A DNA stretch of 32,000 nucleotides from positions 1 to 32,000 of the forward strand of contig CAZNZM010000010.1 of the NCBI GenBank assembly GCA_964577555.1, in the 5' to 3' direction. The DNA comes from an uncultured archaeon (GTDB lineage: Archaea > Iainarchaeota > Iainarchaeia > Iainarchaeales > Iainarchaeaceae). A program made the position numbers and the translations under genes. The number at the start of each line of letters is the position of its first letter. Position 1 is the stretch's first letter. Under the pieces are notes generated by a model that had not been told where the DNA came from, ran no database searches, and saw only the letters and a list, made by a program, of their open reading frames with translations. Of the stretch, positions 1-29,077 are shown piece by piece.

Positions 1-577
<577 letters not shown>

Positions 578-862
578 TTAATTGTTTATTTTTTTTATCA
601 AGGATGTTGCTATTTTTTTCGCGTTTTCCTTTTTGTTGGTTGATTTTACTATTATTTTTCCGCTTTTAAAAATAGATACGTCTTTCCCGCCGAATTTCAA
701 CATCAAGAGATATGGCGTTTCTATTTCGATAAAAACCTCTTTTTCCCTTAATTTTTTTGCAAGTAATTCAAGGTTCAAAGAGTATTCCCTTTTTGGCACG
801 AATTCATATGCTGTTCTGGAATTGCATGGTTGCCCTATAAAATTGTCAAATTCTATTTTCAT
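578..862 (-). CDS. hypothetical small protein (94 aa)
   Basis: Intact ORF with an AT-rich promoter-like region upstream (863-940). No catalytic motif recognised. The segment VSIFKSGKIIVKST loosely recalls a TBP-like strand-turn-strand, but that is not enough for a call. Confidence 0.45.
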   Translation of the reverse strand: MKIEFDNFIGQPCNSRTAYEFVPKREYSLNLELLAKKLREKEVFIEIETPYLLMLKFGGKDVSIFKSGKIIVKSTNKKENAKKIATSLIKKINN

Positions 863-5094: not shown

Positions 5095-5693
5095 ATGAGG
5101 AAATAGAAAGCTTGATCAAGGAAACAGAGGATTTGATTTCCAAAGGAAAGGTTTTTGAATATTGGAAAATTGTTGAAAAAGGCGAAATTATTATGCAAAA
5201 ATTGGAAACTGCCAATTTTGGGACAATAGAGCAAGGTGTTTTGGTGATTGGCAAACTTTATTTGGGTAAAGGCGCCATAATAAAGTCAGGTACAAGGATT
5301 GAAGGCAATGTTTATATAGGTGAAGAATGCACTGTCGGACCTAATGCGTTTTTGCGCAATGGCACAATACTAGCGCCAAGAGTCCATGTGGGAACTTCCG
5401 AAATAAAAAATTCAATAATACTTTCTGGCACCAAAATACCGCATTATTCTTATGTTGGGGACAGCGTAATAGGCAGAAATTGCAATTTGGGCGCAGGTAC
5501 AAAAATAGCCAATTTGAGGCATGATGGTAATACAATTAAAGTTGAAATTGATTGGGAAGTAATGGATTCAGGCAGAAAAAAACTTGGCGCGCTTGTTTTT
5601 GACAATGTAAAAACAGGTGTGAATTCTGCAATCAATTGTGGTGCTGTCTTGATGCCTAATTCAATTGTTTTGCCGTGTGAATTCAAAAAATGA
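5091..5693 (+). CDS. left-handed beta-helix (hexapeptide repeat) acetyltransferase, GlmU C-terminal-domain-like
   Basis: Repeated [LIV]G-x4 hexapeptides (IGEECTVGPNAFL, VGDSVIGRNCNLGAGTKI, VKTGVNSAINCGAVL). ATGA start/stop overlap with glmM. At 200 aa it has no nucleotidyltransferase domain. Confidence 0.75.
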   Translation: MNEEIESLIKETEDLISKGKVFEYWKIVEKGEIIMQKLETANFGTIEQGVLVIGKLYLGKGAIIKSGTRIEGNVYIGEECTVGPNAFLRNGTILAPRVHVGTSEIKNSIILSGTKIPHYSYVGDSVIGRNCNLGAGTKIANLRHDGNTIKVEIDWEVMDSGRKKLGALVFDNVKTGVNSAINCGAVLMPNSIVLPCEFKK

Positions 5694-5707
5694 TTTTTTT
5701 TGGTTTT

Positions 5708-8700
5708 TTAGATTATTTTTCCAGTTACTGCATCAACTTGGACAATTCTTTTTTTGTCGTTAAGGGTTAAAGAAATGTTCCAAATTGGCCAATAAAGTAC
5801 TTCTATTCTTTTTACTATGGTGTTTGGCCAAAGTTTTTTGAATGATTCAACAGCCTCGTCTTTTGAAACTTTTTCCTTTTCAACGTTTATGGCTTCCATT
5901 TTTGTGAATGGCAAGGCTGAAATTGATGAAAGTAATTCGTGCCTTTCATCTGGCGGCAAATCAATATAATTTGAAACACTATACAAAGATTTTTCATTTT
6001 CGTTTTTTTTGATTATCAATTTTTTTTCTAAAAGCCTGTTTATTGTTCTTAAAGCTTTGGCTTCATCAATATTTGCTGCAGCCATTATTTCCTGGACAAC
6101 CATGTTTTTTCCTCGCAGAAGTTTTATTACTTCAATTTCTTCTTGTGACAATATGCTCATGGCTCTTAAGCCTCTTGATTCTATGAATTGTCCATTTTTG
6201 AAGTGCAAGAATTCGCCAGACTTTGAATTTATATAACATTCTTTGGCTATGAGTTCTCTCCTGCTTGTAATGGCATCGTAAATTATTTTCCATATTGGCG
6301 AATATTTCATTATAATTCCTTCTATTGATTCCGATTTTCCAAATATTCCGAAAATGGCTTTTTTTCTTATACTGTCAGCCAGCTTTAAAGCTGTTTTTTC
6401 ATCAATTCTTTGTGGAAGAGTCAAAATTTCAACAGTTGGCTCCACAATAGAGCTAATCTCTTTTTTCAATTCTTCGAATTTTTTTTCTTTTTCAAAAGGT
6501 TCTTTGGATAATTTTTTGAGTTCCAATTCATCTTCCTTAAATGCTTCCAGTGTTTCATCTTTTGACTCTGCAATTGGATTTTTAGCAAACTTTTCAAGTC
6601 CTGCAATTTCTATCTTGTCAGAACTAACCATAAAGCCAGCTTCAACCAGTTTTTTCAACAATTTATCCATGTCGACTTTTGCTTTGTATTTGGAGTTCAA
6701 TGTTTCTATTGCAAGTTTTGCTTTATCCATGTCAAGCGATTTTTCCTCTTTGATGTTTTTCACCAGCATTTCGAATGCAATTTTATCAACCTGGCTTACA
6801 TCAATTTGCTCAGCCATTCCGGTGGTTTCAGCATCTCTGCCCTCGTGTTGAGATTTTCTTGGCCTAATAGCCATGACAAAAGCCCTGCTTGTTTCTTCTC
6901 GCCTGTCGCCTGTCAAAGCCACGCCAACAGGCAAAGTTTTAATGAAATTCGGGGCTCTGTATTTTCTTGGAATTATCGTAGGAGTTCTTTTGAAAACAGC
7001 TTTTATGTCATCGTCAAATATCAATTTATGAGTAATTATTATGTCTAATTGACTTAGAACTTTTGTATTTATTGCGGAAGGCTGTTGCGTTGCAAAGACA
7101 ACCGAAAGTCCGGGCCTTCTTCCTTGTTTTACATACTCAATGAGCCCTTGAGTAGCCGCGGTTATTTCATTTCCGCTTGGTATAAGGGTATGTGCTTCAT
7201 CTATGAATAGCCAAGTCGGGGGGATTTCAAGCTCCAAGAGTTCATTCATGCTTAAAGACTTGAATTTGTTGGCTGCTTCTTTTCTTGTTGATATTTTTCT
7301 TGCAGCAAGCAGTCTTCTTGAAAGTATTCCAATAACAAGAGCAGTTACGTTGTCTTCCAAGAATGAAGTATCCAATATTGTTAATTGTCCTTCTCTGGAT
7401 AGTTCTCCAAGTGCCGTGCCCTTTTCGTGGAAAATACCCCAACTCTTTGCAGCTTCAAATCTGCTTACAATTGCTCTTATTGAATCAGGTTTGTATCCTT
7501 TGTCCTTGCTATTAAGTTCGGAATCTGTTTCAAGGCACTCAATAAGGTCATCCAAAGAATAATTAGCACCTTTTGGCTGGACTTTTACATTTCCTTCTAT
7601 TTTTTTGTATCCTTTTTCCACTTTTTTCAAAACCTTGTCAAGCAAAAGCCCAGAAACCGAAAACCTATCAACTCCAAAAGTCAAAGCCCAATCTTCGCTT
7701 GTAAGCAATGAAGGCTTTATTGAAAATCCAGCGTCATAAGTTGATTTTGGCACTTGCCCTTTCATTCCTTCAGGTATAAAAACTTTGACATTGTTCAAAC
7801 CTTTGGCATCCAAACCCCATTCTTTAAGCTTTTCAATCTCTTTTTGGTCTTTATTTGGAAACCTCATAGACCAAAAAACACCGATTGGATCAACTACTAT
7901 AATACCTACATTTTTGTTTTTTTCCGCTAGCTCTTCAGCTATTACACCCAAAACGTATGATTTTCCAGAACCCCTTGCGCCGCAAACAAATACCACGTGT
8001 GGATTAAGAGAGTCAAGATAAACATCCCAATCTTCAAATTCTTTTTCTTTCACTTTCCCAACATGCAACCCGCCTTCAAATTTATAATTTGCAAAAACAC
8101 TGGCTTTTCTGCCAATAAAAACCGCTTTTTTTTCGTTGTCTGAAAGAAAAGAAAGTTTTGTCTCTTCCTGCAAAACTTCTTCAGGTTGTACGTTAGTCGC
8201 GGATTTGTCAGCTTTTTCCAAAATCACTTTTTTTATTTCTTCCTTGCTGGGCGCAACGTATTTTTTTTCCTCGCGAGAATAATGGTCTACATCAAAATCA
8301 AATTCTTCATCATCCCAATCTTCAGGGCTTTTTTCATCTTCGTTTTCATCAAAATCTGGATAATCCTCTTCATCAGCAATTTCATCGTCATTGTCTTCGA
8401 TTGTTTCATCTTCTCTAGGCGTTGTTTTGTTTTTTTCTTCTTGCATTTGATTTTTTTTGTGTTGATTGTTTTGTTTCGTTTCGTTTTCTTTTGTTGTTTT
8501 TTCGCTTTTCTTGTCTTTGCTAGGTTCTGCTAATTCTTTTTCAACAATTGTTTTGTAATTGTCTTTTTCCTCTTCTTCTTGTGCTTGGTTTTGTTGATTT
8601 ATTGTTTGGTTGTTTTCTTCTTGTGTTTGCTTTTGTTCTTCTGTTTTGTTTTTTTCCGCAGCATGTTCAACTTTTTTTGTATTGTTTGATTCGCTCTTTT

Positions 8701-8995
8701 GTTTTTTTTTCTTTTTTTCTTCAACCCATTCTTCCGCACCATATTCCTCCAAATATTCTTCCTCTTCTTCGCTGTCTGAAAAATCCATCCATTCGCTTTT
8801 CATTGTTTTTTCAGCTTCTTTTTCTTCATAGTCTTCTGGCATTATCTCCTTTTCATTATTGTCAATAGCTTGGCGCAAAGATTCAACTTTTGATTGCTTT
8901 TCGTTGTCTTTTAGCATTTCCTCAAAAATATCAACGGTGTTTTTATCGTCCTTTTCAGGTTTGTTTTTATGGTTTTTTTCATATTCTTCGTTCAT
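5708..8995 (-). CDS. HerA/FtsK-superfamily (DUF87-type) P-loop ATPase with a long acidic low-complexity N-terminus and a wHTH-containing C-terminal extension
   Basis: Walker A VCGARGSGKSYVLG, Walker B WLFIDEAHTLIP, and the VVFATQQPS motif typical of HerA-like ATPases. The first ~300 aa are E/D/K/N/Q-rich. A C-terminal wHTH-like segment reads EIEVIKLLRGKNMVVQEIMAAANIDEAKALRTINRLLEKKLI. The track ORF extends to 9046; ATG 8995 (MNEEYEK) is preferred because the upstream 50 nt look like promoter. Confidence 0.8.
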   Translation of the reverse strand: MNEEYEKNHKNKPEKDDKNTVDIFEEMLKDNEKQSKVESLRQAIDNNEKEIMPEDYEEKEAEKTMKSEWMDFSDSEEEEEYLEEYGAEEWVEEKKKKKQKSESNNTKKVEHAAEKNKTEEQKQTQEENNQTINQQNQAQEEEEKDNYKTIVEKELAEPSKDKKSEKTTKENETKQNNQHKKNQMQEEKNKTTPREDETIEDNDDEIADEEDYPDFDENEDEKSPEDWDDEEFDFDVDHYSREEKKYVAPSKEEIKKVILEKADKSATNVQPEEVLQEETKLSFLSDNEKKAVFIGRKASVFANYKFEGGLHVGKVKEKEFEDWDVYLDSLNPHVVFVCGARGSGKSYVLGVIAEELAEKNKNVGIIVVDPIGVFWSMRFPNKDQKEIEKLKEWGLDAKGLNNVKVFIPEGMKGQVPKSTYDAGFSIKPSLLTSEDWALTFGVDRFSVSGLLLDKVLKKVEKGYKKIEGNVKVQPKGANYSLDDLIECLETDSELNSKDKGYKPDSIRAIVSRFEAAKSWGIFHEKGTALGELSREGQLTILDTSFLEDNVTALVIGILSRRLLAARKISTRKEAANKFKSLSMNELLELEIPPTWLFIDEAHTLIPSGNEITAATQGLIEYVKQGRRPGLSVVFATQQPSAINTKVLSQLDIIITHKLIFDDDIKAVFKRTPTIIPRKYRAPNFIKTLPVGVALTGDRREETSRAFVMAIRPRKSQHEGRDAETTGMAEQIDVSQVDKIAFEMLVKNIKEEKSLDMDKAKLAIETLNSKYKAKVDMDKLLKKLVEAGFMVSSDKIEIAGLEKFAKNPIAESKDETLEAFKEDELELKKLSKEPFEKEKKFEELKKEISSIVEPTVEILTLPQRIDEKTALKLADSIRKKAIFGIFGKSESIEGIIMKYSPIWKIIYDAITSRRELIAKECYINSKSGEFLHFKNGQFIESRGLRAMSILSQEEIEVIKLLRGKNMVVQEIMAAANIDEAKALRTINRLLEKKLIIKKNENEKSLYSVSNYIDLPPDERHELLSSISALPFTKMEAINVEKEKVSKDEAVESFKKLWPNTIVKRIEVLYWPIWNISLTLNDKKRIVQVDAVTGKII

Positions 8996-9128
8996 ATTAA
9001 AACCAAATAAATAATATGCATGGATAATAAAATTATTCCTATGCAAAACATCTAAAGAACCATTGTTTTTTTGTATTCTGCTTTTTCAACACAAACATTA
9101 ATTAATAAATCGCATATTTTTTTTCTTC

Positions 9129-10319: not shown

Positions 10320-10367
10320 TTATAAATACTCTAAAATTGATTTCTATTAATAGTTTTAAAATTTTTA

Positions 10368-10441
10368 TGGACTGAGCGGGACTTGCACCCGCCGCCTTCC
10401 GGATGCGAACCGGACGCTCTAGCTGTCTGAGCTATCAGCCC
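10368..10441 (-). tRNA. tRNA-Ala (anticodon CGC), no encoded CCA
   Basis: Hand fold: acceptor GGGCUGA/UCAGUCC with the G3:U70 Ala identity pair, D stem GCUC/GAGC, anticodon stem UCCGG/CCGGA with loop UUCGCAU, T stem GCGGG/CCCGC. D loop AGACAGCUA and T loop UGCAAGU are non-canonical. Confidence 0.8.
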
Positions 10442-10531: not shown

Positions 10532-10765
10532 TCAAGGGGAACTTTCAATTATTCTTTTTCCCCTCAAATAAACTCCTATTGCAGTTATTATCGAACCAAA
10601 ACTTGTCATGTATAATAAAGTTCCGTTTGTAGAATAACCCGCCAAATGTTGTCTAATTCCTTCAATGAATGCTGATAACCCAAAACCAGCTAGTATTACA
10701 ACCAATAAATATATTGAAACGCTTTTGATTACTTGTGTTTTTATGACTTCAAATTCTTTGCTCAT
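10532..10765 (-). CDS. hypothetical small membrane protein (two predicted TM helices)
   Basis: 77-aa ORF with two hydrophobic stretches (VSIYLLVVILAGFGLSAFI, LLYMTSFGSIITAIGVYL). No homology recognised. Confidence 0.4.
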   Translation of the reverse strand: MSKEFEVIKTQVIKSVSIYLLVVILAGFGLSAFIEGIRQHLAGYSTNGTLLYMTSFGSIITAIGVYLRGKRIIESSP

Positions 10766-12720: not shown

Positions 12721-14313
12721 TTATAAATCAAACGGCACTATGCCTTGTTTGACGTATTTCTCTACAATTTCTTGGGTACAATCAGTGTCAGTATTGTACC
12801 AAGAATTAGGATCAAGTTTATATGTGCAAACTCTTGGATCGCATTTTTTGTCATCGTTAATGCAGGTGAGTGCTACTTTGACATTTTGTTGGCATTCTTT
12901 GACGAATAACGAATGTTGAATTGATAAGCAATACTTGTCATCTTTCATTGCCACTGCATAGCGGTTATAGCATTGTTCAGTGCCACTATATTTCAATGAT
13001 CTCATTTCTTTTCTTTGAACTTTGTCGCAAACTTCTGGGACTTTTGCGTCAAGCGCGATTTTTGCATAACAATCCACGTATGCTGAATCTCTTTGGATTT
13101 TTTCGCATTTTCTTGAATCTTTGGTATCAAATGCAATATCGCTAATGCATTTTTCAAACAGTGATTGGTTTGTCCTGCTTATGCCGATGCACAAATCTTC
13201 GTTCTTGATTTTTTTGGATGTTTCGAATATGCATTTATCTTTAAGATCTGTGTTTCCATCTATTTTTAAGCATCTTTCAATTGAATTGAAATCGGAAGCA
13301 TATGCGTAATAACATTCGTTTCTTATTTTTAATTCATTTATTAATGGACAAGTTGATTCGCCATACAAGTTGGTTGCAATATATTTTATACACGAATTTT
13401 TTAATTCATATTTCAAGTTATAACACGCTTTTACGTCTCCTCTTTTGGAAGCATACCATGCGCTGCAATAATCAAATGCATTTTCGTCTTTTACTATGCT
13501 GCAAGAAAAATTTGTGTCTGGAACATTTGATGCGTTTTTGAAGCACTCTGCACTCAAAGCTTTGTCAACAAAGTGGTTACATTTTTCCCCATTATTTGCC
13601 ATGTTTATTTGTTTTAGGCAATCGTCTCTTGCATTTACTCCGACTATTTTATAAGTATCGCTGACTTTAAGGCAAATATCTGGGTCGTTTGTACTTGCCG
13701 CAATTCCTTTATAACATTGGTCTCTGGTTTTAGGCTCAAAAATATTTTTACAAGTATCAAATGTGCCTATTCCGTTGTAGCAATCATCTTTTTTGGCTAC
13801 ATCTTCTATATATTTACAAATTTTGTTGTTTTTAAGTGACTTTCCCACTGAATTATAACAATCGTCTTTGAGATATGTGTCTATGATTTTTATGCAGACG
13901 TTGTAATCAGCCATTGCAACTCCTGCCTCAAAAAAGCATCTTGACTTGAATTCTTCCGACACCAAAGTGCATGGAAATTCGGATTTGTTGGAAGTTGCGG
14001 TGTTAATAAGGCAAATTTCAGCATCAAGAGGCGGGCCAGCATTGCATTTTTCTATGCTACGAACAACTTCTACAGGCACGCCAGGGTATTTATCCAAATT
14101 TATGTCGATTATTTGCTGTTTTGCATCTTTGTTTTCGTCTTCTTTGGGTTTATTAAAATCTATTTGCTTGTTAGTGTCAATATTTTTATTTTGGTCAATT
14201 TCTTTATTTTTATCCAAATTTGGCGGGTTGTCATGTTGTTTGGTTTTTAAACAGCCAAATAATACAATAGATACGCAAAGTATTGCACAAAAAATCAATA
14301 TTTTTTTCTTCAT
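12721..14313 (-). CDS. secreted Cys-rich repeat lipoprotein (hypothetical)
   Basis: Signal peptide with lipobox-like LFGC, then an N/K/D-rich linker. About a dozen degenerate ~30-35 aa repeats follow, each with paired Cys (KDDCY, KKDDCY, TRDQCY, ARDDCL, IRNECY, AYVDCY, TEQCY). Confidence 0.7.
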   Translation of the reverse strand: MKKKILIFCAILCVSIVLFGCLKTKQHDNPPNLDKNKEIDQNKNIDTNKQIDFNKPKEDENKDAKQQIIDINLDKYPGVPVEVVRSIEKCNAGPPLDAEICLINTATSNKSEFPCTLVSEEFKSRCFFEAGVAMADYNVCIKIIDTYLKDDCYNSVGKSLKNNKICKYIEDVAKKDDCYNGIGTFDTCKNIFEPKTRDQCYKGIAASTNDPDICLKVSDTYKIVGVNARDDCLKQINMANNGEKCNHFVDKALSAECFKNASNVPDTNFSCSIVKDENAFDYCSAWYASKRGDVKACYNLKYELKNSCIKYIATNLYGESTCPLINELKIRNECYYAYASDFNSIERCLKIDGNTDLKDKCIFETSKKIKNEDLCIGISRTNQSLFEKCISDIAFDTKDSRKCEKIQRDSAYVDCYAKIALDAKVPEVCDKVQRKEMRSLKYSGTEQCYNRYAVAMKDDKYCLSIQHSLFVKECQQNVKVALTCINDDKKCDPRVCTYKLDPNSWYNTDTDCTQEIVEKYVKQGIVPFDL

Positions 14314-14399: not shown

Positions 14400-14665
14400 C
14401 TCCTTTTTAATAATTATTTTTTTTAAGCCTTGTTTTTTTTTGTTTTAGTTGTTTTTTTGCGAGCCGTTTTTTGTCATTTTTTTGAATTCTTTTTTTTAAT
14501 TATTTTTTTTGCAAGTCATTTTTTTTCAGTTGTTTTTTTTGTGAGCCGATTTTTTTAAACAATTTTTGTTTGATGTTTTATTTTTTTTGCGAACCAATTT
14601 TTTTGTTGATTGGGTTTTTTTATTTTTAAAATGTATAAATTATTTTTTGTGATTTTGTTTTTTTA
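14400..14665 (+). repeat. T-tract / GC-island repeat array, locus B
   Basis: GCGAGCCG 14459-14466, GTCA 14473-14476, GAATTC 14484-14489, GCAAGTCA 14511-14518, GTGAGCCG 14541-14548, GCGAACCA 14589-14596, each separated by T6-T8 runs. Lies between the stop of pan (14678) and the start of the lipoprotein gene (14313). Confidence 0.85.
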
Positions 14666-14677
14666 GACGTTGTTTTT

Positions 14678-18632: not shown

Positions 18633-19037
18633 GTGTGGTTCACCTCTCCTCCAAAAGTTTTGTACAATTTTGATTTTTGATAAATGAATCTTTTTTGCTT
18701 TTGAATAAAAAAGCTTAGATTCTTGTATAAATGTTGCTGAACTCCTTTATATGCGTTTTGTTTTTGATATAAGGCACTATTAACGTTATTTTACTTCACT
18801 AAACAAAAAACACACAAAAATTTTATGTATATTATTAATTTTTTGATTAATTCATTAACTCTATACTGATAAAAGCATTAACTCATCTTTGTTTTTAAAA
18901 AAAAGTGTTAAAAAGGCTTATTTTTCTTAATAGGTTGCTTTTTTTTGGTTTTTTGTTAAGTATTTTTTCGTTTTTTGGCTAAGTTTTAGTTCAATTTTTA
19001 TTCTAAATTTGTAAAATTTAAACGCCGAATTTAAATA

Positions 19038-19048: not shown

Positions 19049-19061
19049 AAATTTAGTATTT

Positions 19062-19334
19062 GTGGGCTAGTTCGGAGAGGTAGCGGCTCTCTGTTGCCGG
19101 CAACCCGCTTCAGCCGGGAACGAAGCCACTGAAGAGGCATTAACCATATATTGATGCCTTGCCAGTACTGTGAACTTCTGCTCTTAAAGACTGGCTGTTT
19201 GGGCCAACCCCGCTAGGCCTGGAAGGGAGCAACGGTAACTCATTCAGTCGGTGCTTTAAGGTAAACGGAAGCGAGGAGAGGTTAAGGGTAAACGTCTTTA
19301 TGTGGTTGCTGTCCATTTGGTGGCGCGCCCACAC
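19062..19334 (+). ncRNA. signal recognition particle RNA (archaeal 7S-type)
   Basis: Helix-8 signature CCCCGCUAGGCCUGGAAGGGAGCAACGGUA (compare the conserved AGGCCCGGAAGGGAGCAACGG). The 5' GUGGGC pairs with the 3' GCCCAC to close the molecule. GC content is much higher than the surroundings. ORFs 19140..19367 and 19300..19539 overlap it and are spurious. Confidence 0.88.
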
Positions 19335-19380
19335 TCTTGCAAAAATTATAAAAAAAATACATTTCATTTATACATTTCAT

Positions 19381-20110
19381 TTTTTTTTACTTGGTTTTTT
19401 TTGTAAGTTTTTTTTGTCTTGTTTTTTCGAGCCGTTTTTTGTCATTTTTTTGAATTCTTTTTTTTTTAATTATTTTTTTTTGCAAGTCATTTTTTTTTCA
19501 GTTGTTTTTTTTTGTGAATTTTTTTTTATTTTGTTTTAATTGTTTTGTTTTTGTTTTGGCTGGTTGTTTTTTTTTGTTTCTTTTTTTTGAGTTGTTTTTT
19601 TTAGATGTTTTTTTTTCGAGCCGTTTTTTGTCATTTTTTTGAATTCTTTTTTTTGCGAGCCAATTTTTTTTGTTTTGTTAGTCAAGTTTTGTTTTTTTTA
19701 CGAGTCTTTTTTTGATAATTTTTTTTATTTTTTGATACTTGTTTTTTTTGGTGAGCCACTTTTTTGCCATTTTTCTTTTTTTTGAATTCTTTTTTTTGCG
19801 AGCCAATTTTTTTTGTGAATTTGTTTTTTTTTATTTTGTTTTAATTATTTTTTTGTTTTTTTGAGGTTTGTTTTTTTGTCGGCTATTTTTTTTATTTTTT
19901 TTGCTTATTTTCAAGTCAATTTATTTTTTTTAATTGTTTTTTTTGGCAAGCCATTTTTCGTTTTTTTGCTTGGCCAAGTTTTTTTGTCTTGTTTTTGCGA
20001 GACAATTTTTTTTGTCATTTTTTTTGAATTTTATTTATTTTTTTATGATTTGAATTTTATTTTTTTCTTCGGTATTGTTTTTTTATTTTTCCAGACAATT
20101 TGCGTGATTT
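19381..20110 (+). repeat. T-tract / GC-island repeat array, locus C (largest motif density, internally duplicated)
   Basis: GAGCC[AG] at 19429, 19618, 19657, 19753, 19800. GAATTC at 19452, 19641, 19784. GCAAGTCA 19482, GCAAGCCA 19946, GCGAGACA 19997. Lies between the SRP RNA 3' end and the 3' end of minus-strand CDS 20057..20518, which it overlaps. Confidence 0.88.
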
Positions 20111-20518
20111 ATTTTGCTTTTTTATGACATTTTTTTCTTTTCTTTTTTTGCTTGTTTTTTTGCCTTTATTTTTTTCACTCTTTCCAACAACCCTGTTTTT
20201 CGGTTTTTTCCACGCTTCAAGCGCAGCATCAATTTTTTTTCTTTGTTCGTTTCTTCTTTTTTCTCTTTCATCAAGCTTTGCGATCAACGAATTATATTTT
20301 CTGTGAACTTCTTCGCTGTGTTTTAATGCATTTTTTAAAGAAAGCTCCAAATGCCTTTCTTCCCTCTCTTTATGCAAACCATGAAAAACCCTGTGTAAAA
20401 AACCCAAAGCAACAGAATTATCCGCTTTTGTCTTTCTATATTTGGCTCTTTCTGAATGATGTTTGCTTAAACTTAAATATTTCCTAAATTTAATATAATG
20501 CTTTTCGTGTTTTTCCAT
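20057..20518 (-). CDS. hypothetical basic coiled-coil protein with Lys-rich C-terminal tail
   Basis: 153-aa ORF. The N-terminal two thirds have normal composition with H/K/R/E-rich helices. The last ~50 aa (KKPKNRVVGKSEKNKGKKTSKKRKEKNVIKKQNKSRKLSGKIKKQYRRKK) are encoded by the edge of repeat array C. Confidence 0.5.
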   Translation of the reverse strand: MEKHEKHYIKFRKYLSLSKHHSERAKYRKTKADNSVALGFLHRVFHGLHKEREERHLELSLKNALKHSEEVHRKYNSLIAKLDEREKRRNEQRKKIDAALEAWKKPKNRVVGKSEKNKGKKTSKKRKEKNVIKKQNKSRKLSGKIKKQYRRKK

Positions 20519-21677: not shown

Positions 21678-21750
21678 GCCGAGGTAGCTCAGCAGGTGGA
21701 GCGTCCGGCTGTTAACCGGAAGGTCGGTGGTTCAAATCCACCCTTCGGCG
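21678..21750 (+). tRNA. tRNA-Asn (anticodon GUU), no encoded CCA
   Basis: Hand fold: acceptor GCCGAGG/CUUCGGC, D stem GCUC/GAGC with a GG-containing loop, anticodon stem UCCGG/CCGGA with loop CUGUUAA, T arm GGUGG-UUCAAAU-CCACC. A T6 run follows immediately. Confidence 0.9.
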
Positions 21751-22506
21751 CTTTTTTATTTGTTTCTGAATCCAATTTTTTTGTCTTTTGGCTTGGTTAT
21801 TCTTGGAGCCTGTTTATTTTATTTTTTTTTTGATTTTTTTGTTTTTTTTGTTTTTTTTGTCAAGTTGTTTTTTTTTATTTTTTTTATTTTGGTTTTGTTT
21901 TTTTTGTGAGCCATTTTTTTTGTGGTTTTTTTTGGTTTTTTTTGTGGGATGATTTTTTTTGTCATTATTTTTTTTTGTTTTTTTTGTGAGCCAATTTTGT
22001 TTTTTTTTGTTTTTTTTGTCAAGTTGTTTTTTTTTAGACTTTTTTTTTATTTTTTTTTAATTATTTTTTTTAAATTGATTTTGTTTTTTTTTGTTTTATT
22101 TTATCATTTTTTTTGAATTATTTTTTTTCTTGGTTTTTTTGTTTTTTTTGGTATTGCTAGCCATTTTTTTGTCATTATTTTTTGTGAGCCATTTTTTGTT
22201 ATTTTTTTTGTGATTTTATTTTTTTTATTTAAATTGTTTTGTCTTTTTTTGTGGCTTGTTTTTTTGATTTTTGTTTTTTTTGGCGAGCCGTTTTTTTTGT
22301 GGGGCAATTTTTTTTGTTATTTTTTTTGTGGACTTGTTTTATTTTTTTGTTTTTGTTGGCTTGTTTTTTTGGAGAATTTTTTTGGCAAGCCGTTTCGGAC
22401 TTATTTTTTTTGCTTTGTTTTTTGCTTGTATTTTTTTCAGCATTTTTTTGAATTTGTTTGTTTTTCATTTTTTTGTTTGGCCTTTTTTTATGGTTATTTT
22501 TTAATT
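21751..22506 (+). repeat. T-tract / GC-island repeat array, locus D
   Basis: GAGCC[AG] at 21908, 21988, 22186, 22285. GCTAGCCA 22156, GCAAGCCG 22385. GTCAAGTTGTTTTTTTTT occurs twice (21858, 22018). GTCATTATTTTTT occurs twice (21961, 22171). Spans from the tRNA-Asn 3' end to the stop codon of minus-strand CDS 22507..23337. Confidence 0.88.
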
Positions 22507-23337
22507 TTATAAGGTGTCAGAATGCAGTTTTTGTTCTTTGGCTGGCTGCTTATCTGCTTGATGACTTTTGTGTTCTTTTATTTTTTTAAGAGTCTCATAA
22601 TATGCGCCTATAACGTCTTTGAGTTCCATTCTTCTTTTCAAGCCCAGCCTATGAACTTCTTGAAAATACACTGTTACGAGTCTTATTGCAACTTCTTCAT
22701 CGCTTAGGTTCATCCAGTTTTCCTCCATCATTTTTTTACTAATCATACTTTCTAATTTGTTTTTTTCATTATTTTCTGCTTCGTTTGTTTGTTCAGTTTT
22801 TTTTGTTTCAGGTTCACTAATAATTTCTTCCGTGTCTTTTTCTTCTATTTTGATTGGGATTTTTTTTATTATTGTTCTGGTTTTTACTACTGGGACTTTT
22901 TTTACGATTGTTTTCGTTTTTATAACTGGGACTTTTTTTATTATTGTTCTCACGATTGTTTTTGGTTTAGCTTTCACTTTTTTTATGATTGGCTTGCCTT
23001 TTTTGTATGAAGTCCACAATCTTACTGCTTGTTTGAATGTTTTGCCAGCAATTAATTGCCTTTTCATGAATAAGTTGTACTCTGAAAGTTGCTTCTTTGA
23101 TTTTTTCTTTGAAAGCTTTTCCAGATTTTCTTTTAATTTTTCCATTTCTTTTTTAAGAGAAGCCGTTTTTGCAGTAACAGACTTGACTTTTTTTTCAGCC
23201 TTCTTTTTGACAGCAAAAATTGATTTTTTAAGAGCTTTTGCCTTTTTGCTTTCAGATTTAAGGGTTTTTTTAAGTTTTTTTAATTCTTTTCTGACTTTTT
23301 TTCCAGGGTTTTTTGATTTAGAAACCATTGTTTTCAC
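22507..23337 (-). CDS. Lys-rich hypothetical protein (candidate nucleoid/chromatin-associated)
   Basis: 276 aa. K-rich coiled-coil N-terminus, the segment LSEYNLFMKRQLIAGKTFKQAVRLWTSYKK resembling the first helices of HMG-box/YABBY domains, three 12-aa tandem repeats (TIIKKVPVIKTK / TIVKKVPVVKTR / TIIKKIPIKIEE), an acidic linker and a globular C-terminus. TATA-like TTTAAATA ~25-32 nt upstream. Confidence 0.6.
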   Translation of the reverse strand: MKTMVSKSKNPGKKVRKELKKLKKTLKSESKKAKALKKSIFAVKKKAEKKVKSVTAKTASLKKEMEKLKENLEKLSKKKSKKQLSEYNLFMKRQLIAGKTFKQAVRLWTSYKKGKPIIKKVKAKPKTIVRTIIKKVPVIKTKTIVKKVPVVKTRTIIKKIPIKIEEKDTEEIISEPETKKTEQTNEAENNEKNKLESMISKKMMEENWMNLSDEEVAIRLVTVYFQEVHRLGLKRRMELKDVIGAYYETLKKIKEHKSHQADKQPAKEQKLHSDTL

Positions 23338-24505: not shown

Positions 24506-25012
24506 TTGGATAGAGATATAGATATAATTTACAATTTATATCGCTGCCTTATACCTGAATTTACCAAGAGTCATGCTTTAATTTATCGCTTGCTTTGGCG
24601 GATTGAACCTTTAAGCGGTGATAAAATTTCAAAGGAAACAGGCATTTGCAGGGCAAAAACTTTTGCAATTCTCAAGCAATTAGTGATTCTCGGTTTGGTG
24701 AAAAAAACAAGTTTCAAGCCGATTGGTTACTTTGCAAGAGACCCTGTAGGTGCCTATTCTTCTTTGCTAAAAAAAGTCTTGCCTAAACTTGAAGCAGGAA
24801 AAACAAAGATCAAAGAACTTGTACAGAATTCTTCCAGCCTTAGCGGAGAAGTTTATTTAATAAAACTTGATGGCGGGCAACAAACAATAATAAGTAAAGA
24901 AACCCGTGAATCTATCACTGATAGAAAAGCTTTGGAAGAAATCAGGGCTGCTATTGATAGAAAAATATTTGGCTCAAACCCGCGCGAAAAGAAATGGGTT
25001 ATTTACAGGTAA
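24506..25012 (+). CDS. winged-helix (TrmB/MarR-like) transcriptional regulator, hypothetical
   Basis: wHTH-like HALIYRLLWRIEPLSGDKISKETGICRAKTFAILKQLVILGLVKK. Apparent TTG start preceded by a GGGGG SD-like run. Convergent with the VirB4-like gene. Confidence 0.55.
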   Translation: MDRDIDIIYNLYRCLIPEFTKSHALIYRLLWRIEPLSGDKISKETGICRAKTFAILKQLVILGLVKKTSFKPIGYFARDPVGAYSSLLKKVLPKLEAGKTKIKELVQNSSSLSGEVYLIKLDGGQQTIISKETRESITDRKALEEIRAAIDRKIFGSNPREKKWVIYR

Positions 25013-25181
25013 TCTTGATTTTTTTTGTTTAGCCGAGTTTTTTTGAATCATTTTTGTTTCTTCCGCGTGTTTTTTTTACATGTTTTTGTGATTGTTTTTT
25101 TGTAAGTTGTTTTCTTATTTTGTAATTTGCGAGCCAAGTTTTTTGGACACTTATTTTTTTATTAGTTATAATAATTTTTTT
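25013..25181 (+). repeat. T-tract / GC-island repeat array, locus E (short, degenerate)
   Basis: T6-T8 runs with GCGAGCCA at 25129-25136. Fills the gap between convergent CDS 24506..25012 and the stop of the VirB4-like gene (25182). Confidence 0.65.
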
Positions 25182-26882
25182 TCAGCTTGGCTTCGTATTT
25201 ACTAAGTTAAGTTCTTTTTCCGAGGCTATTACATTTAATGGAATATGGTCATTCATTGCGATGAGTATTCCTTCTCCTGGTTGGGCATTGAGCAGAATGT
25301 TTTGTTCCGAAGGATTGAGCATAAATTTTTCAGCTATTTGGTCAATTGCCCCGGCTTCTTGGCGTCCGAAAAATTTCCACGCGGTGTTTGAGATTATTGT
25401 ATTTCCTGCATTTGTTGATAAAAGGTCTTGCGCTTCTTGTGTTATAATAATTATTCCCATATTGAATTTTCTTGAAGTTTTTACTAGTTCAAAAATGCGA
25501 TTTGCATGTTCCGCATATTTTAGCAAAGACCATGCTTCGTCAACAACAAGAATTTTTTTTCCTTTTTCAGAGCGCATTTTTCCATGGATATACTCCATAA
25601 TGAGAAACATTATTGCTGGTTTAAGCGCTTCGGGCATTTCAGATATGTTAAAACAGACTATTTTTTTATCAGAGAATTGTGCAGTGTGTTTGTCCATAAA
25701 AGAAAAAGAGCCATTGACAAAAATATTAAGCCTGCTTTCAAGTATTGAAAACGTACGTTTTTCATATTTTGCGGCTTTCTTCAATTCTTTTGATATTTCA
25801 AAAAATAGATCGCTTATTAAAGGCGGTTGTCTTTTCCAACTTTCAGGGTTATTGTGAAAAATTCCTTTGTCACTATAAATTTTTTGTATGGCTTTGTCGA
25901 GAATTGATTTTTGTTCTTCGTTCAAATTTCCTAAAAGTATTCCGAAAAAATCTATTAATGAAAGAACCTTTTCGCCAAAGTCGATTCCGGCCATATCAAA
26001 AGGATTTATTGCCTTTCCGCTTTTTGCACTTATTTCAACTACTTCCCCACCATATTTTGAAGTCAGTGCAGAGTATTCGCCTTGCGGATCAATTATTATT
26101 ACTTTGATTCCGATAAATTGGCTTCTTAATATTAAAAGCTTTGCCAATACGCTTTTTCCCCCTCCTGAAGTTCCAAGAATAAGTCCATTATAATTGGCTA
26201 AACTGAATGGGTTTATTATTATGGGAATTTTATTAATCGAGTTTGAGCCGAATAAAATGCCTTCCTCGTCAATATTCAAAAAAGAAGTCGTAAAAGGAAA
26301 GCAGGCAGCCAATGCTGAAGAAGTTATATTTCTGTTGATTTTTAGCAAATCTTTTTGTATTGGAAGGCACGATTTTACAGCTTCATACATTCTCATAAAC
26401 GGTATTTTTGGCACTATCATTATTGAATTCATTTCAGCGCATACTTTTTTTGATGCTATTTCAAGCGATTCCTTGTCATTCGCACGACAATTTACATATA
26501 ATGACATGTTGAACAGTTTTTCCTCGCCTTTTTGCAGCATTTCCAAAACATTCATTGTATCTGCACGCTGTATTCTAAGAGAAGGGTTTACAATTCCTTT
26601 TATTTCAGCAGCGGCAAGATCCGATTCTTGTTTCACAAGTTCTGCATTCAGGCTTGTAAGAACCGAATCAATTTCCATTGGCGCACAATGAATGCTTATG
26701 TCGAAATTGCCTTCACTTGAAACTATTGTATCAAGCCAGCCTTCTTTTATTTCTCTCGGATAACCTACTGCCATGACCGGTCTGTTAAATTCATTTCCTA
26801 AAACCATCCAACCAGGTTCGTTTTTTAGATATGAATGTGTAAAAAGACTTTTTATGTTCTCCATATAAATCACTGATTGCAT
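25182..26882 (-). CDS. VirB4/TrbE-family type IV secretion ATPase (middle and C-terminal ATPase portion)
   Basis: Walker A GTSGGGKSVLAK, Walker B ILVVDEAWSLL, IIITQEAQDL, and the upstream AVGYPREIKEGWL block typical of VirB4 middle domains. There is no SD before ATG 26882. Confidence 0.85.
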   Translation of the reverse strand: MQSVIYMENIKSLFTHSYLKNEPGWMVLGNEFNRPVMAVGYPREIKEGWLDTIVSSEGNFDISIHCAPMEIDSVLTSLNAELVKQESDLAAAEIKGIVNPSLRIQRADTMNVLEMLQKGEEKLFNMSLYVNCRANDKESLEIASKKVCAEMNSIMIVPKIPFMRMYEAVKSCLPIQKDLLKINRNITSSALAACFPFTTSFLNIDEEGILFGSNSINKIPIIINPFSLANYNGLILGTSGGGKSVLAKLLILRSQFIGIKVIIIDPQGEYSALTSKYGGEVVEISAKSGKAINPFDMAGIDFGEKVLSLIDFFGILLGNLNEEQKSILDKAIQKIYSDKGIFHNNPESWKRQPPLISDLFFEISKELKKAAKYEKRTFSILESRLNIFVNGSFSFMDKHTAQFSDKKIVCFNISEMPEALKPAIMFLIMEYIHGKMRSEKGKKILVVDEAWSLLKYAEHANRIFELVKTSRKFNMGIIIITQEAQDLLSTNAGNTIISNTAWKFFGRQEAGAIDQIAEKFMLNPSEQNILLNAQPGEGILIAMNDHIPLNVIASEKELNLVNTKPS

Positions 26883-26890
26883 CCAATTTT

Positions 26891-27733
26891 TTATGATTTT
26901 AAAGATGAGGAAAGAAAAGTAATTTTTCTCGGCTTTTCGAATTTTGAATTTAAATTGTTTCCGGCAATTGCAAGAAAAAGTTTGGCAATTTCGTTTTCGT
27001 CAAGTCTTTTGGCACTTAAACCGCCTTTTTTGAGTTTTGTGATGCAAAGAGAACTTCTTGCTTCCAGCAAACTTTCATCAAGGCTATTCTCCGTTGGATT
27101 GTCTTCTCCAACCACTATGAAAAAACGCCTATTTCTGACTGAATTTTTCCTATTGTAATTTTCGATAAAATTTCTAAATTCAAAAAAATAATCTGAGATT
27201 TTCTTATTTCCTTGCAAAGATGCGCATTTTGATGTTTTTTCAAGGTATTCAAAAAGCGATAATTCAGTTGTTCTGACAAATATTTGTATTGGAAAGTCAA
27301 GGGAGTTAAGAAAGTCTCTATAAGCAACTATCACTGATTCTTGTTGCTTTTGTGAAAGTATTTTGAAATTTATTGGAAAAACTTCTATAATTGCTTTTTT
27401 TGAACCATCATCCAAAATTAATTTGTTGTCTTCTATTTTTTTTATTCCCGTAAATTTTTCAGATTCTTTGTCAAAAAAACCTGATTCTTTTTTTGATAAA
27501 ACAAATGACAGGAAATTAATGGAGTGTCTTGAAAAATCCAAAAACGCAAATCCGAATCCAGCAAAAGCAAGCAATATGAGCGCAGTTATTTTGATTTCAA
27601 TGCTTAAATTTGTTTTAAGGAAAAAAATCAAGCCTATTAAAATAAAAATGCCTAACCAAAAGCATTGTCTTGCTGAAAGATTGAATATTATTTTTTCTTC
27701 ATATTTTAGGTTTTTTGGTATTTCATAAGGCAT
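26891..27733 (-). CDS. VirB3(PrgI/TcpE)-like membrane protein fused to a VirB4 N-terminal-like domain
   Basis: N-terminus MPYEIPKNLKYEEKIIFNLSARQCFWLGIFILIGLIFF matches the PrgI-family pattern (x-Y-x-I-P-K-x-x-x-Y-E-E-K-I-x-F-x-L-S-x-R-Q plus 2 TM). The remainder (AIIEVFPINFKILSQKQQESVIVAYRDFLNSLDFPIQIFV) resembles the N-terminal domain of Gram-positive-type VirB4. GAGGT SD upstream. Confidence 0.6.
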   Translation of the reverse strand: MPYEIPKNLKYEEKIIFNLSARQCFWLGIFILIGLIFFLKTNLSIEIKITALILLAFAGFGFAFLDFSRHSINFLSFVLSKKESGFFDKESEKFTGIKKIEDNKLILDDGSKKAIIEVFPINFKILSQKQQESVIVAYRDFLNSLDFPIQIFVRTTELSLFEYLEKTSKCASLQGNKKISDYFFEFRNFIENYNRKNSVRNRRFFIVVGEDNPTENSLDESLLEARSSLCITKLKKGGLSAKRLDENEIAKLFLAIAGNNLNSKFEKPRKITFLSSSLKS

Positions 27734-27742
27734 GTTTTAACC

Positions 27743-28759
27743 TCAAAATGTCTGCTTTTTTTGGATGTTTTGTCCAGCAAATTGCTTTGCAAAGCTTCCG
27801 TTGAATATTGGAGCAATAACCAAATTGCTTGCAATTTGAATTACCGGTCTGAAAAACGCAAATGCCATTGCCGCAACATTAAATACTCCTATTGTGAAAA
27901 ACGCAAATGCTGGCAAGTATTGTGATGCAGGTGTGTTTCCTAAACCTATAACCACGCCTGTTGCCGCAACGATTATTATTGAATCAAAAAATTGCAACAA
28001 AATGGCTACGCCCAATATTCCAAAAATGGCTTTTCCAAATTGTTTGAGCGGTGGTGTAAAATAACTGAAAATCCCTATTGGAAGTATTGCTGTTCCAACA
28101 AGCAAAATTATTTGCCTGAAAAAAAGTGTGAATCCTGCAAAACCCGCCGCAAAAATTAGAAATATTATTAATAAAGGGTTGCTGTTTTGCATTACTGGAA
28201 AAATAAGTTTTTCAGGATGATTTCCAAGAACATGAGATGCAGCCAAGGTTCCTATTTCTATTAATATTTTGTATAAATCAAATGATGCAGAAATAATAAT
28301 CATTGATATTATCACTCCTTTGATTAATTCTTTGGCTTCTGCTCTTTTGGCATGGTTTTCAAATGCAATTATAAAAAATAATCCTGCGACAGACAAATTC
28401 ATCAAGTAAAACAAGGAAATTAATGCTATTACCGAACTCCAAATGTTTCGCATTGGTTCAATGTCAGGCGGGGAAGCAAGCAACAAATAAAAAAGTTGAG
28501 TAAGAGGGGAACCAAATTCATTTAAAGAATTTTCAAAATAATTTTTGAACAAATCAAAGCCTTGTTGCGGGAGTTTTCCGGTAAAATCCTTGATTTGGTT
28601 GGTTGCACCGCTTATTGCATTTATAACTCCACTTATATCAATATTTATTAAGGGATTTACGATAATTGGGGTTTCATTTTTTGCAGAAAATGCTGATTGG
28701 GAGTTGAAGAGCAGGCATAAGAAAACAATTGGAAGAAAGAACCAAAAAAATTTATCCAT
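27743..28759 (-). CDS. VirB6/TrbL/CedA-like polytopic membrane protein
   Basis: N-terminal signal peptide (…NSQSAFSA) followed by ~6-7 TM helices. Sits between the pilin-like gene and the VirB3/VirB4 genes. GGGAGGG SD upstream. Called from topology and synteny only. Confidence 0.55.
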   Translation of the reverse strand: MDKFFWFFLPIVFLCLLFNSQSAFSAKNETPIIVNPLINIDISGVINAISGATNQIKDFTGKLPQQGFDLFKNYFENSLNEFGSPLTQLFYLLLASPPDIEPMRNIWSSVIALISLFYLMNLSVAGLFFIIAFENHAKRAEAKELIKGVIISMIIISASFDLYKILIEIGTLAASHVLGNHPEKLIFPVMQNSNPLLIIFLIFAAGFAGFTLFFRQIILLVGTAILPIGIFSYFTPPLKQFGKAIFGILGVAILLQFFDSIIIVAATGVVIGLGNTPASQYLPAFAFFTIGVFNVAAMAFAFFRPVIQIASNLVIAPIFNGSFAKQFAGQNIQKKQTF

Positions 28760-28777
28760 AGCCTGCCCTCCCGGGTT

Positions 28778-29077
28778 TCATGGGGATGTAAGATAATTTA
28801 CAACAAGTGGAGCCACCCAAACCAGTACAAGCCCTACAATAGCGTATGACACCATTGATTTTGCATTTTCCCTTGTTTGAATGTTATTGCCAGAAAACAT
28901 GTACATTGCTCCGGCGGCTGTTATCGCTATTACTCCAAGAACCGAAATTATTGCTTTCATCAAATCATAGATTTTTGTTATCGGCTCTTTGATTTTTTCC
29001 ATATCACTTGTTGTTTCAGCTAAGCAAAAACCTGAAAGCAATATAGTTGCAATAAGAATTGTTGTAATAGTTTTCAT
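28778..29077 (-). CDS. VirB2/TrbC/CedA1-like pilin candidate
   Basis: 99 aa with a signal peptide (MKTITTILIATILLSGFCLA|ETT), then two hydrophobic helices separated by a short polar loop (SGNNIQTRENAKS). This is the canonical VirB2 topology. Strong SD GGAGGTG 5 nt upstream of the ATG, and it is the first gene of the operon. Confidence 0.6.
   Translation of the reverse strand: MKTITTILIATILLSGFCLAETTSDMEKIKEPITKIYDLMKAIISVLGVIAITAAGAMYMFSGNNIQTRENAKSMVSYAIVGLVLVWVAPLVVNYLTSP

Follow-up and report, generated by a model that had tools for sequence, protein, structure and literature searches.

Oriented T-run arrays at gene 3' ends in an Iainarchaeota genome evolve in concert and may act as one-way transcription stops

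What are the long T-rich spacers in the genome of an uncultured archaeon of the Iainarchaeaceae, and why do all of them point in the same direction? We examined positions 1 to 32,000 of contig CAZNZM010000010.1 (assembly GCA_964577555.1, forward strand), a stretch of 32,000 nucleotides hereafter called the window. By its FtsZ and other proteins the window belongs to a DPANN archaeon of the Diapherotrites/Iainarchaeota type; the exact FtsZ sequence had no match on record. Five intergenic tracts consist of runs of T on the + strand which are interrupted by a small vocabulary of short islands. An earlier note, made from the letters alone, had described them as a family of arrays, and this description is real: the tracts hold 160 runs of at least five T (T5+) and not a single A5+ run on the + strand. 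We tentatively read the arrays as a lineage-specific, self-homogenising satellite of terminator-type runs of seven to nine T, which would act as polar one-way stops for transcription and whose bulk is possibly surplus. Taking all comparisons together, we give this reading a probability of about 0.4.

The tracts, all oriented with T on the + strand, are A (1..577), B (14400..14677), C (19381..20056, the type locus), D (21752..22506) and E (25013..25181, 169 bp). Summed they amount to 2,455 bp or 7.7% of the window. T accounts for about 60-69% of their bases, G for 12-15%, A for 10-17% and C for 6-9%; tract C is 67% T with 45 T5+ runs, tract D is 69% T with 50 such runs and no A4+ run. Tract A is truncated by the start of the window, which falls in a T43 homopolymer (13-55). 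The asymmetry is apparent in the window as a whole, where the + strand has 309 T6+ runs and the minus strand 73, the corresponding counts for T8+ being 114 and 9; an A-rich mirror array is absent from the window, as had been claimed. Each array has 9-50 runs across 170-755 bp. Run lengths are quantised at 7-9, eight being the commonest: 118 T7-9 runs were observed in the tracts against 31 expected from composition, whereas T10+ runs are rarer than chance (4 observed, 12 expected). The runs are spaced by 13-17 bp (median 15 bp). Tandem Repeats Finder (TRF) detected higher-order periods of 93-159 bp within the arrays; a fixed period was found neither by TRF nor by a repeat finder, and inverted repeats or hairpins are lacking inside the tracts. 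Tract C had originally been drawn as far as 20110. T-richness indeed extends to about this position, but 20057-20110 overlaps the Lys-rich 3' end of an open reading frame (ORF; 20057..20518, minus strand). What had been listed as a weak sixth locus is a mini-cluster of T-runs (18935..18984, +) upstream of the promoter of the signal recognition particle (SRP) RNA gene.

The islands between the T-runs are 1-9 nt long. GAGCC[AG] was found at the 16 tract positions initially reported; however, the motif as such is less specific than this count implied. It has 29 matches on the + strand of the window, i.e. a further 13 outside the tracts, and 13 on the minus strand, all outside the tracts. The sharper island G-Y-GAGCC-R is present in 12 copies in the tracts and in none on their opposite strand, and the remaining 29 kb contain just two copies of G-Y-GAGCC when both strands are counted. 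The composite pattern GAGCCR-T6+-GTCA-T6 matches three times in the window compared with 0.00 expected in shuffles. Many islands read as transition variants of T-run/GCGAGCCA/T-run, such as GCAAGCCA, GCAAGTCA, GTGAGCCA and GCGAACCA, and we infer that these are decayed copies of the GCGAGCCA motif. GCAAG[CT]CA, which had been included in the vocabulary, is not strand-specific window-wide (4 copies on +, 6 on minus). GAATTC was recovered at 171, 269, 14484, 19452, 19641 and 19784, an exact 30-mer at 14460, 19428 and 19617, and an exact 32-mer at 19641 and 19784. A long module is common to B and C (14460..14550 and 19428-19522, + strand); in it, 40 of 40 island bases are identical and only the lengths of the T-runs differ. 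A perfect 10-bp palindrome, CTTGGCCAAG, is located at 19969-19978 in tract C; it is the sole palindromic island seen.

How do such arrays evolve? A sister lineage (L033) is represented by a 50-kb contig from the Joint Genome Institute (JGI) which is syntenic with the window and carries the locus mirrored. FtsZ is 98% identical, nucleotide identity is about 85%, proteins are 94-98% identical and four-fold degenerate sites 61-67%. Arrays are present in L033 at orthologous sites, with four loci in common. Their lengths differ: 676 bp in the window versus 620 bp in L033 for C, 755 versus 460 bp for D and 169 versus 933 bp for E; B is much shorter in L033. The sequences of orthologous arrays cannot be aligned, while the adjoining SRP RNA is about 96% and the genes are 85-88% identical. 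Only the edges are conserved, namely the first T-run or runs after tRNA-Asn (T6) and after the gene of the TrmB-family regulator, plus A5-TTAT-A8 between the SRP RNA gene and tract C. The vocabulary is shared, with 21 island 6-mers occurring at least three times in both genomes compared with 0.24 expected after island shuffling, and L033 has 10 or more copies of G-Y-GAGCC-R flanked by T6-9. Paralogous modules comprise 40 island nt in the window (B-C) and 24 in L033 (D-E), whereas orthologous arrays of the two genomes share at most 12. Because paralogous loci within a genome share longer modules than orthologues do, as is expected of concerted satellites, the arrays evolve in concert, and run length changes rapidly. 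Two short-read contigs from other samples, L054 and L055, are about 99% identical to L033 including the arrays; mainly homopolymer length differs. They end exactly at arrays D and E (L054, 1-110 and 2689-2715; L055, 1756-1901).

More distant relatives (L034, with an FtsZ identity of 94%, L035, L050, L052 and L053) have no arrays, nor do the loci L056 and L058; hence the arrays are confined to a narrow clade. The spacers of the array-free relatives are nonetheless long and compositionally skewed. In L034 they measure 160-760 bp (e.g. 5679-5839 and 8256-9019), unusually long for a DPANN genome, and occupy about 27% of the contig; A5-7 runs and islands resembling GCCAAGC are scattered in them. 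The L034 spacers may be precursors of the arrays. L052, a 21-kb locus (ENA ERZ4756920), shows very strong four-fold-site skews on both gene strands (AT -0.27/-0.29, GC +0.42/+0.17) and has GT-rich spacers; five T6-7 runs lie downstream of a histone gene in this locus. Scans of genome, metagenome and viral contig collections with GAGCCR-T6+-GTCA-T6 and T6-GYGAGCCR-T6 yielded only single chance matches in unrelated bacteria and viruses and no T-run arrays; either the lineage is missing from the GTDB representatives or the patterns did not match its arrays. No description was found in the searchable literature on T-rich or homopolymer intergenic arrays in DPANN/Diapherotrites.

The common orientation was examined against the strands of genes and chromosome. 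The AT skew at four-fold sites, calculated in sense direction, is -0.20 for + strand genes and +0.09 for minus-strand genes, so that neutral sites of the + strand are rich in T, and slightly rich in G, regardless of gene direction. In L033, with its mirrored locus, the skew has the mirrored sign. The arrays therefore point the same way as an asymmetry of the whole chromosome strand. Strand asymmetry is tied to replication in other prokaryotes, and by this analogy the asymmetry seen here is probably replication-associated. That every array has one orientation was confirmed. The accompanying argument, that flanking genes lie on both strands, is weaker than it appeared, since every right-hand neighbour is a minus-strand gene, and it is weakened further by the match with the strand-wide excess of T over A. 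For the same reason 'follows the replichore' and 'follows the upstream gene' are inseparable here.

The gene neighbourhood is regular. At the right edge of five of five tracts is the stop of a minus-strand gene (578, 14678, 20057, 22507 and 25182), in all cases within 12 nt. These stops belong to the ORF 578..862, the PAN gene, a 153-aa gene with a Lys-rich tail (20057..20518), the gene of a 276-aa Lys-rich protein (22507..23337) and a gene for a VirB4/TraG-like ATPase (25182..26882). At the left, three tracts directly follow + strand units. Tract C starts 47 nt downstream of the archaeal SRP RNA gene (19060..19334; Rfam RF01857, 130.9 bits), tract D immediately after tRNA-Asn(GTT) (21678..21751; Rfam and ARAGORN), and tract E adjoins the 3' end of the TrmB-family regulator gene (24506..25012). 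Three of the spacers are convergent, one is tandem and that of tract A is cut by the window edge. None of the seven divergent, i.e. promoter-containing, spacers of the window carries a tract.

These properties are compatible with transcription termination. In archaea five T suffice as a minimal terminator, a hairpin is not needed, and natural consecutive oligo-dT terminators exist (PMC2253867). More U-tracts raise the efficiency of termination, and the factor aCPSF1 binds RNAs with at least two U4 tracts (PMC8716108). The arrays offer 160 runs of five or more T on the non-template strand, most frequently of eight, and the position at a same-strand 3' end applies to C, D and E, not to B. T7-9 runs are also found directly after ordinary gene stops (5694, 17424 and 24415). 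An RNA polymerase travelling in the + direction would encounter its first U-tract after no more than about 15 nt, followed by some 45 others. In the minus direction it would meet no U-tract; in A, D and E not even a T4+ run is present in the sense of that strand. Because U-tracts are met in one direction and not in the other, the arrays would constitute polar one-way stops. Transcripts of the SRP RNA, tRNA-Asn and the TrmB operon as well as spurious antisense transcripts would be kept out of the minus-strand genes. Close to tract C, the only minus-sense terminator-like run is A5-TTAT-A8 at 19341..19357, which the minus strand reads as T8-ATAA-T5 and which is kept in L033. Stacked oligo-T terminators acting as one-way insulators had been put forward in the earlier note. 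This idea fits the sequence best, with the qualification that only the gene-proximal runs are conserved and that the bulk looks surplus.

How might the arrays have arisen? Ordinary 3' spacers could have grown by slippage, by tandem duplication and by template switching at T-runs or gene conversion from one locus to another, in a direction favoured by strand-biased mutation. Growth of this kind, as proposed, would account for the modules that loci share, for the turnover in length and for the orientation common to all arrays. Selection would be needed only on the runs closest to each + strand gene, and the remainder may be tolerated surplus. That most of each array may be dispensable follows from the conservation of gene-proximal runs only and from a tRNA-Ala(CGC) gene (10368-10441, minus strand) which does without any T-run terminator.

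Several points weigh against this reading. The tRNA-Ala gene has no T5+ run downstream before the convergent malic-enzyme gene (10320-10441 region), so RNA genes in this genome do not generally demand huge terminators. No + strand gene precedes tract B, which is flanked by the stop of the PAN gene and by the conserved promoter region of a minus-strand gene (12721..14313). Termination needs far fewer than the roughly 45 runs of an array. The persistence of G-Y-GAGCC-R in about 12 copies, and in two lineages with a four-fold identity of 61-67%, is not accounted for, nor is the termination of the five minus-strand units, which may have A-rich unstructured 3' extensions of 170-750 nt or may be read through into the next genes. 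Mutation bias alone cannot make the arrays because the skew at neutral sites (about -0.15) is far weaker than that of the tracts (-0.7). The link to replication rests on one 32-kb segment.

If termination were incidental, the arrays could be a non-functional or selfish satellite: long unconstrained spacers, pushed towards T and G by strand-biased mutation, would then have been expanded and homogenised. We regard this as possible, though somewhat less likely than the reading above. The complete turnover of sequence and the five-fold change in length between sister lineages would be expected, and so would concerted evolution and the observation that near-identical strains differ mainly in run length. 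The long skewed spacers already present in array-free relatives (161-764 bp in L034; strong GT skew in L052) are likewise in line with it. The base order of the + strand, T>>G>A>C, fits also. This is the order which deamination of one strand, with C->T and A->G changes, would give. On the other hand, an unconstrained satellite does not explain the quantised run lengths (118 T7-9 runs where 31 are expected), or the persistence of the C-containing and oriented G-Y-GAGCC-R in both lineages. Furthermore, in a small genome the arrays were kept at the same four loci over about 0.47 neutral substitutions per site, a hand estimate from the four-fold-site identities, and promoter spacers are free of them.

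Could the arrays instead be a selected strand-polar element that is new to Archaea? This would imply either A-rich, poly(A)-like tails or replication-oriented G-Y-GAGCC-R/T8 sites, and a dedicated copying between loci; we consider it unlikely. In the first form, the minus-sense transcripts of the tracts would be encoded, unstructured 3' untranslated regions of the five minus-strand genes, A-rich and with more C than G, which affect mRNA decay, the loading of aCPSF1/FttA or the rescue of ribosomes after read-through. Encoded A-rich 3' extensions, already suggested in the earlier note, appear somewhat less likely again. In its favour, five of five arrays begin within 12 nt of a minus-strand stop codon, sense U4+ tracts are absent from A, D and E, and the conserved sense T8 terminator is present only at the far end of tract C. 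The minus-sense tract RNA is indeed unstructured (fold z = 0.13), and in L034 the orthologue of the gene next to tract C is already trailed by an A-rich stretch of 160 nt. However, the L033 arrays have sense T5-T6 runs 77-84 nt past the stop, which indicates that a long A-rich extension is not conserved; sequence and length are not conserved either. In addition, a polymerase reading through D and E would transcribe tRNA-Asn and TrmB in antisense. We know of no archaeal precedent for a templated A-rich 3' extension.

In the second form, the T-rich strand would be the lagging-strand template and the arrays would serve as initiation zones for primase or as fork-related polar sites, with an orientation that flips at origin and terminus. 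Archaeal primases are reported to favour T-rich templates. The strand-wide T>A and G>C bias at four-fold sites points the same way as every array, and G-Y-GAGCC-R is strictly oriented. We nevertheless regard a replication element as improbable. A single chromosomal segment was seen, the direction of neighbouring genes explains the orientation equally well, and the motif is clustered in arrays and not dispersed like the FtsK-orienting polar sequences (KOPS) or Chi. In the partial annotation available (Pfam on 10 proteins and the context of L033 homologues), orc1/cdc6 was not recognised among the ORFs of the window, and no other replication gene or origin feature was seen nearby.

Do the arrays bind protein? 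Rigid dA:dT might exclude histones and set a chromatin boundary, or the GAGCC islands and A-tracts might bind a nucleoid protein. A conserved, oriented island between runs of fixed length would suit such a scaffold, two arrays adjoin genes of Lys-rich proteins, and the relative L052 has a histone gene. Yet helical phasing is missing: spectral power is 3.8 at 10.5 bp compared with 23-27 at 13.25-14 bp, so that phased bent A-tract DNA was rejected, and the spacing of the islands is irregular. The suggestion that the adjacent Lys-rich proteins bind the tracts found no support, because there is no power at 10-11 bp, the family is also encoded in genomes without arrays (including the loci L056 and L058), and no DNA-binding domain was identified. 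Accordingly, a scaffold or boundary seems very improbable. The 22507..23337 protein belongs to a family of 35 members which is confined to Diapherotrites/Iainarchaeota. Invariant in this family is the motif LSEYNLFMRRQL..GKTF.QAV.LW, which is duplicated in some members; the C-terminal domain is helical and likewise conserved. No match was obtained in Pfam or in a sequence search of the PDB, and Foldseek against the PDB returned nothing significant. The AlphaFold model is all-helical with a mean pLDDT (predicted local distance difference test) of 71. A likeness of the SEYNLFM motif to HMG/YABBY was not supported by any tool. The gene itself has a 36-nt tandem repeat in three copies (22855-22962).

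Degenerate or frameshift-prone Lys-rich coding on the minus strand, as C-terminal tails or small K-rich proteins, is most improbable: translation does give K-rich peptides in all frames, JGI called ORFs of 29-76 aa in the L033 arrays and tract C merges gradually with the tail of ORF 20057..20518, but stops occur in all three frames, start-to-start distances of runs are uniform modulo 3 (103/87/87), the concatenated tract-frame peptides, which are low-complexity queries, had no matches among 5.8 billion proteins, and the arrays cannot be aligned between lineages whose proteins are 94-98% identical. An assembly or sequencing artefact, for which one might cite the T43 run at the window start and the short-read contigs that break at arrays, has a negligible probability because arrays are present at the same loci in at least four assemblies from different samples, and three of these agree to about 99% with the array sequence included.

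Established repeat classes were considered as well. As the earlier note had held, the arrays are not clustered regularly interspaced short palindromic repeats (CRISPR), a miniature inverted-repeat transposable element (MITE) or origin recognition boxes (ORB); period, inverted-repeat and Rfam tests were all negative. A CRISPR array is rejected as repeat length and period are not fixed and units of 6-30 nt are irregular (TRF and repeat finder). A MITE or a derivative of an insertion sequence fails because inverted repeats neither lie within nor bound the tracts, and an ORB or mini-ORB origin because inverted boxes are lacking and five loci lie within 32 kb. Palindromic repeats of the type of repetitive extragenic palindromes (REP) and bacterial interspersed mosaic elements (BIME) would form hairpins, of which there are none (fold z-score 0.13). 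Rfam matched only tRNA and SRP RNA, neither in a tract, even at E<=1.

A few features of the window deserve mention in their own right. The + strand at 8400-8720 is T-rich, of low complexity and weakly array-like to repeat finders, but it is coding: it corresponds to the N-terminal Glu/Lys-rich region of a HerA-like protein of 1112 aa (5708..9046, minus strand). Between guaA and tRNA-Ala is a hydrophobic ORF of 77 aa (10532-10765, minus strand), which is followed by ordinary sense T6-T8 terminators, unlike the array-flanked genes. The 94-aa ORF next to tract A (578-862, minus strand) has a sub-threshold match to a single TBP repeat (PF00352, 21.6 bits; cutoff 22.9). The minus-strand cluster at 25182-29077 encodes membrane proteins and a PrgI/TraC-like protein besides the VirB4/TraG-like ATPase. 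L034 lacks the cluster between the same neighbours, and for this reason it may be an integrated element. Breakpoints of gene order between the window and L034 fall at the array loci C, D and E.

Why does this matter? One simple motif takes up 7.7% of a 32-kb segment despite the reduced genomes of DPANN archaea, a cost that needs explaining. If the arrays are polar terminators, no natural case of redundant one-directional insulation in Archaea would be more extreme, and archaeal synthetic biology would gain a ready-made part. Should the A-rich strand be transcribed, Archaea, which lack canonical polyadenylation, would have a templated tail resembling poly(A). Should orientation follow replication, the arrays would mark replichores in uncultured archaea. 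In practice, they fragment short-read assemblies of the lineage and give rise to spurious calls of small Lys-rich or Phe-rich ORFs.

How do the arrays compare with known systems? With the 3' intergenic repeats REP/BIME and enterobacterial repetitive intergenic consensus (ERIC) sequences they have in common short lineage-specific motifs that are clustered in 3' spacers. REP/BIME and ERIC, however, are hairpin-forming imperfect palindromes in both orientations, whereas the arrays have no inverted repeat. Yeast mitochondrial DNA possesses long A+T-rich spacers with short repeated, apparently mobile G+C clusters, which are palindromes of 30-50 bp; the islands described here measure 4-9 nt in this comparison, are non-palindromic and stand between T-runs of fixed length. 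In yeast and Plasmodium, poly(dA:dT) forms strand-oriented intergenic tracts, single or few and mostly in promoters, for which chromatin exclusion has been proposed. In contrast, the arrays avoid promoter spacers. Like satellites and minisatellites they show a shared vocabulary without a fixed sequence, higher-order periods, rapid length change and a greater similarity among paralogues than among orthologues. Unlike these, they reside in an archaeal genome of roughly the 1-Mb class, dispersed at gene 3' ends, strand-polar and built of homopolymers. Archaeal oligo-dT terminators such as that of Pyrococcus furiosus hpyA1 or the aCPSF1-assisted terminators of Methanococcus maripaludis resemble them in having non-template T5+ at 3' ends, in being free of hairpins and in gaining strength with the number of tracts (PMC2253867, PMC8716108). 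The known terminators comprise 1-4 tracts within tens of nt, the arrays 9-50 runs over 170-755 bp; moreover, the arrays occupy one strand even in convergent spacers, contain a conserved GC island and are homogenised between loci. While no described repeat family was matched, the nearest known things are consecutive archaeal oligo-dT terminators on the one hand and concertedly evolving satellites on the other.

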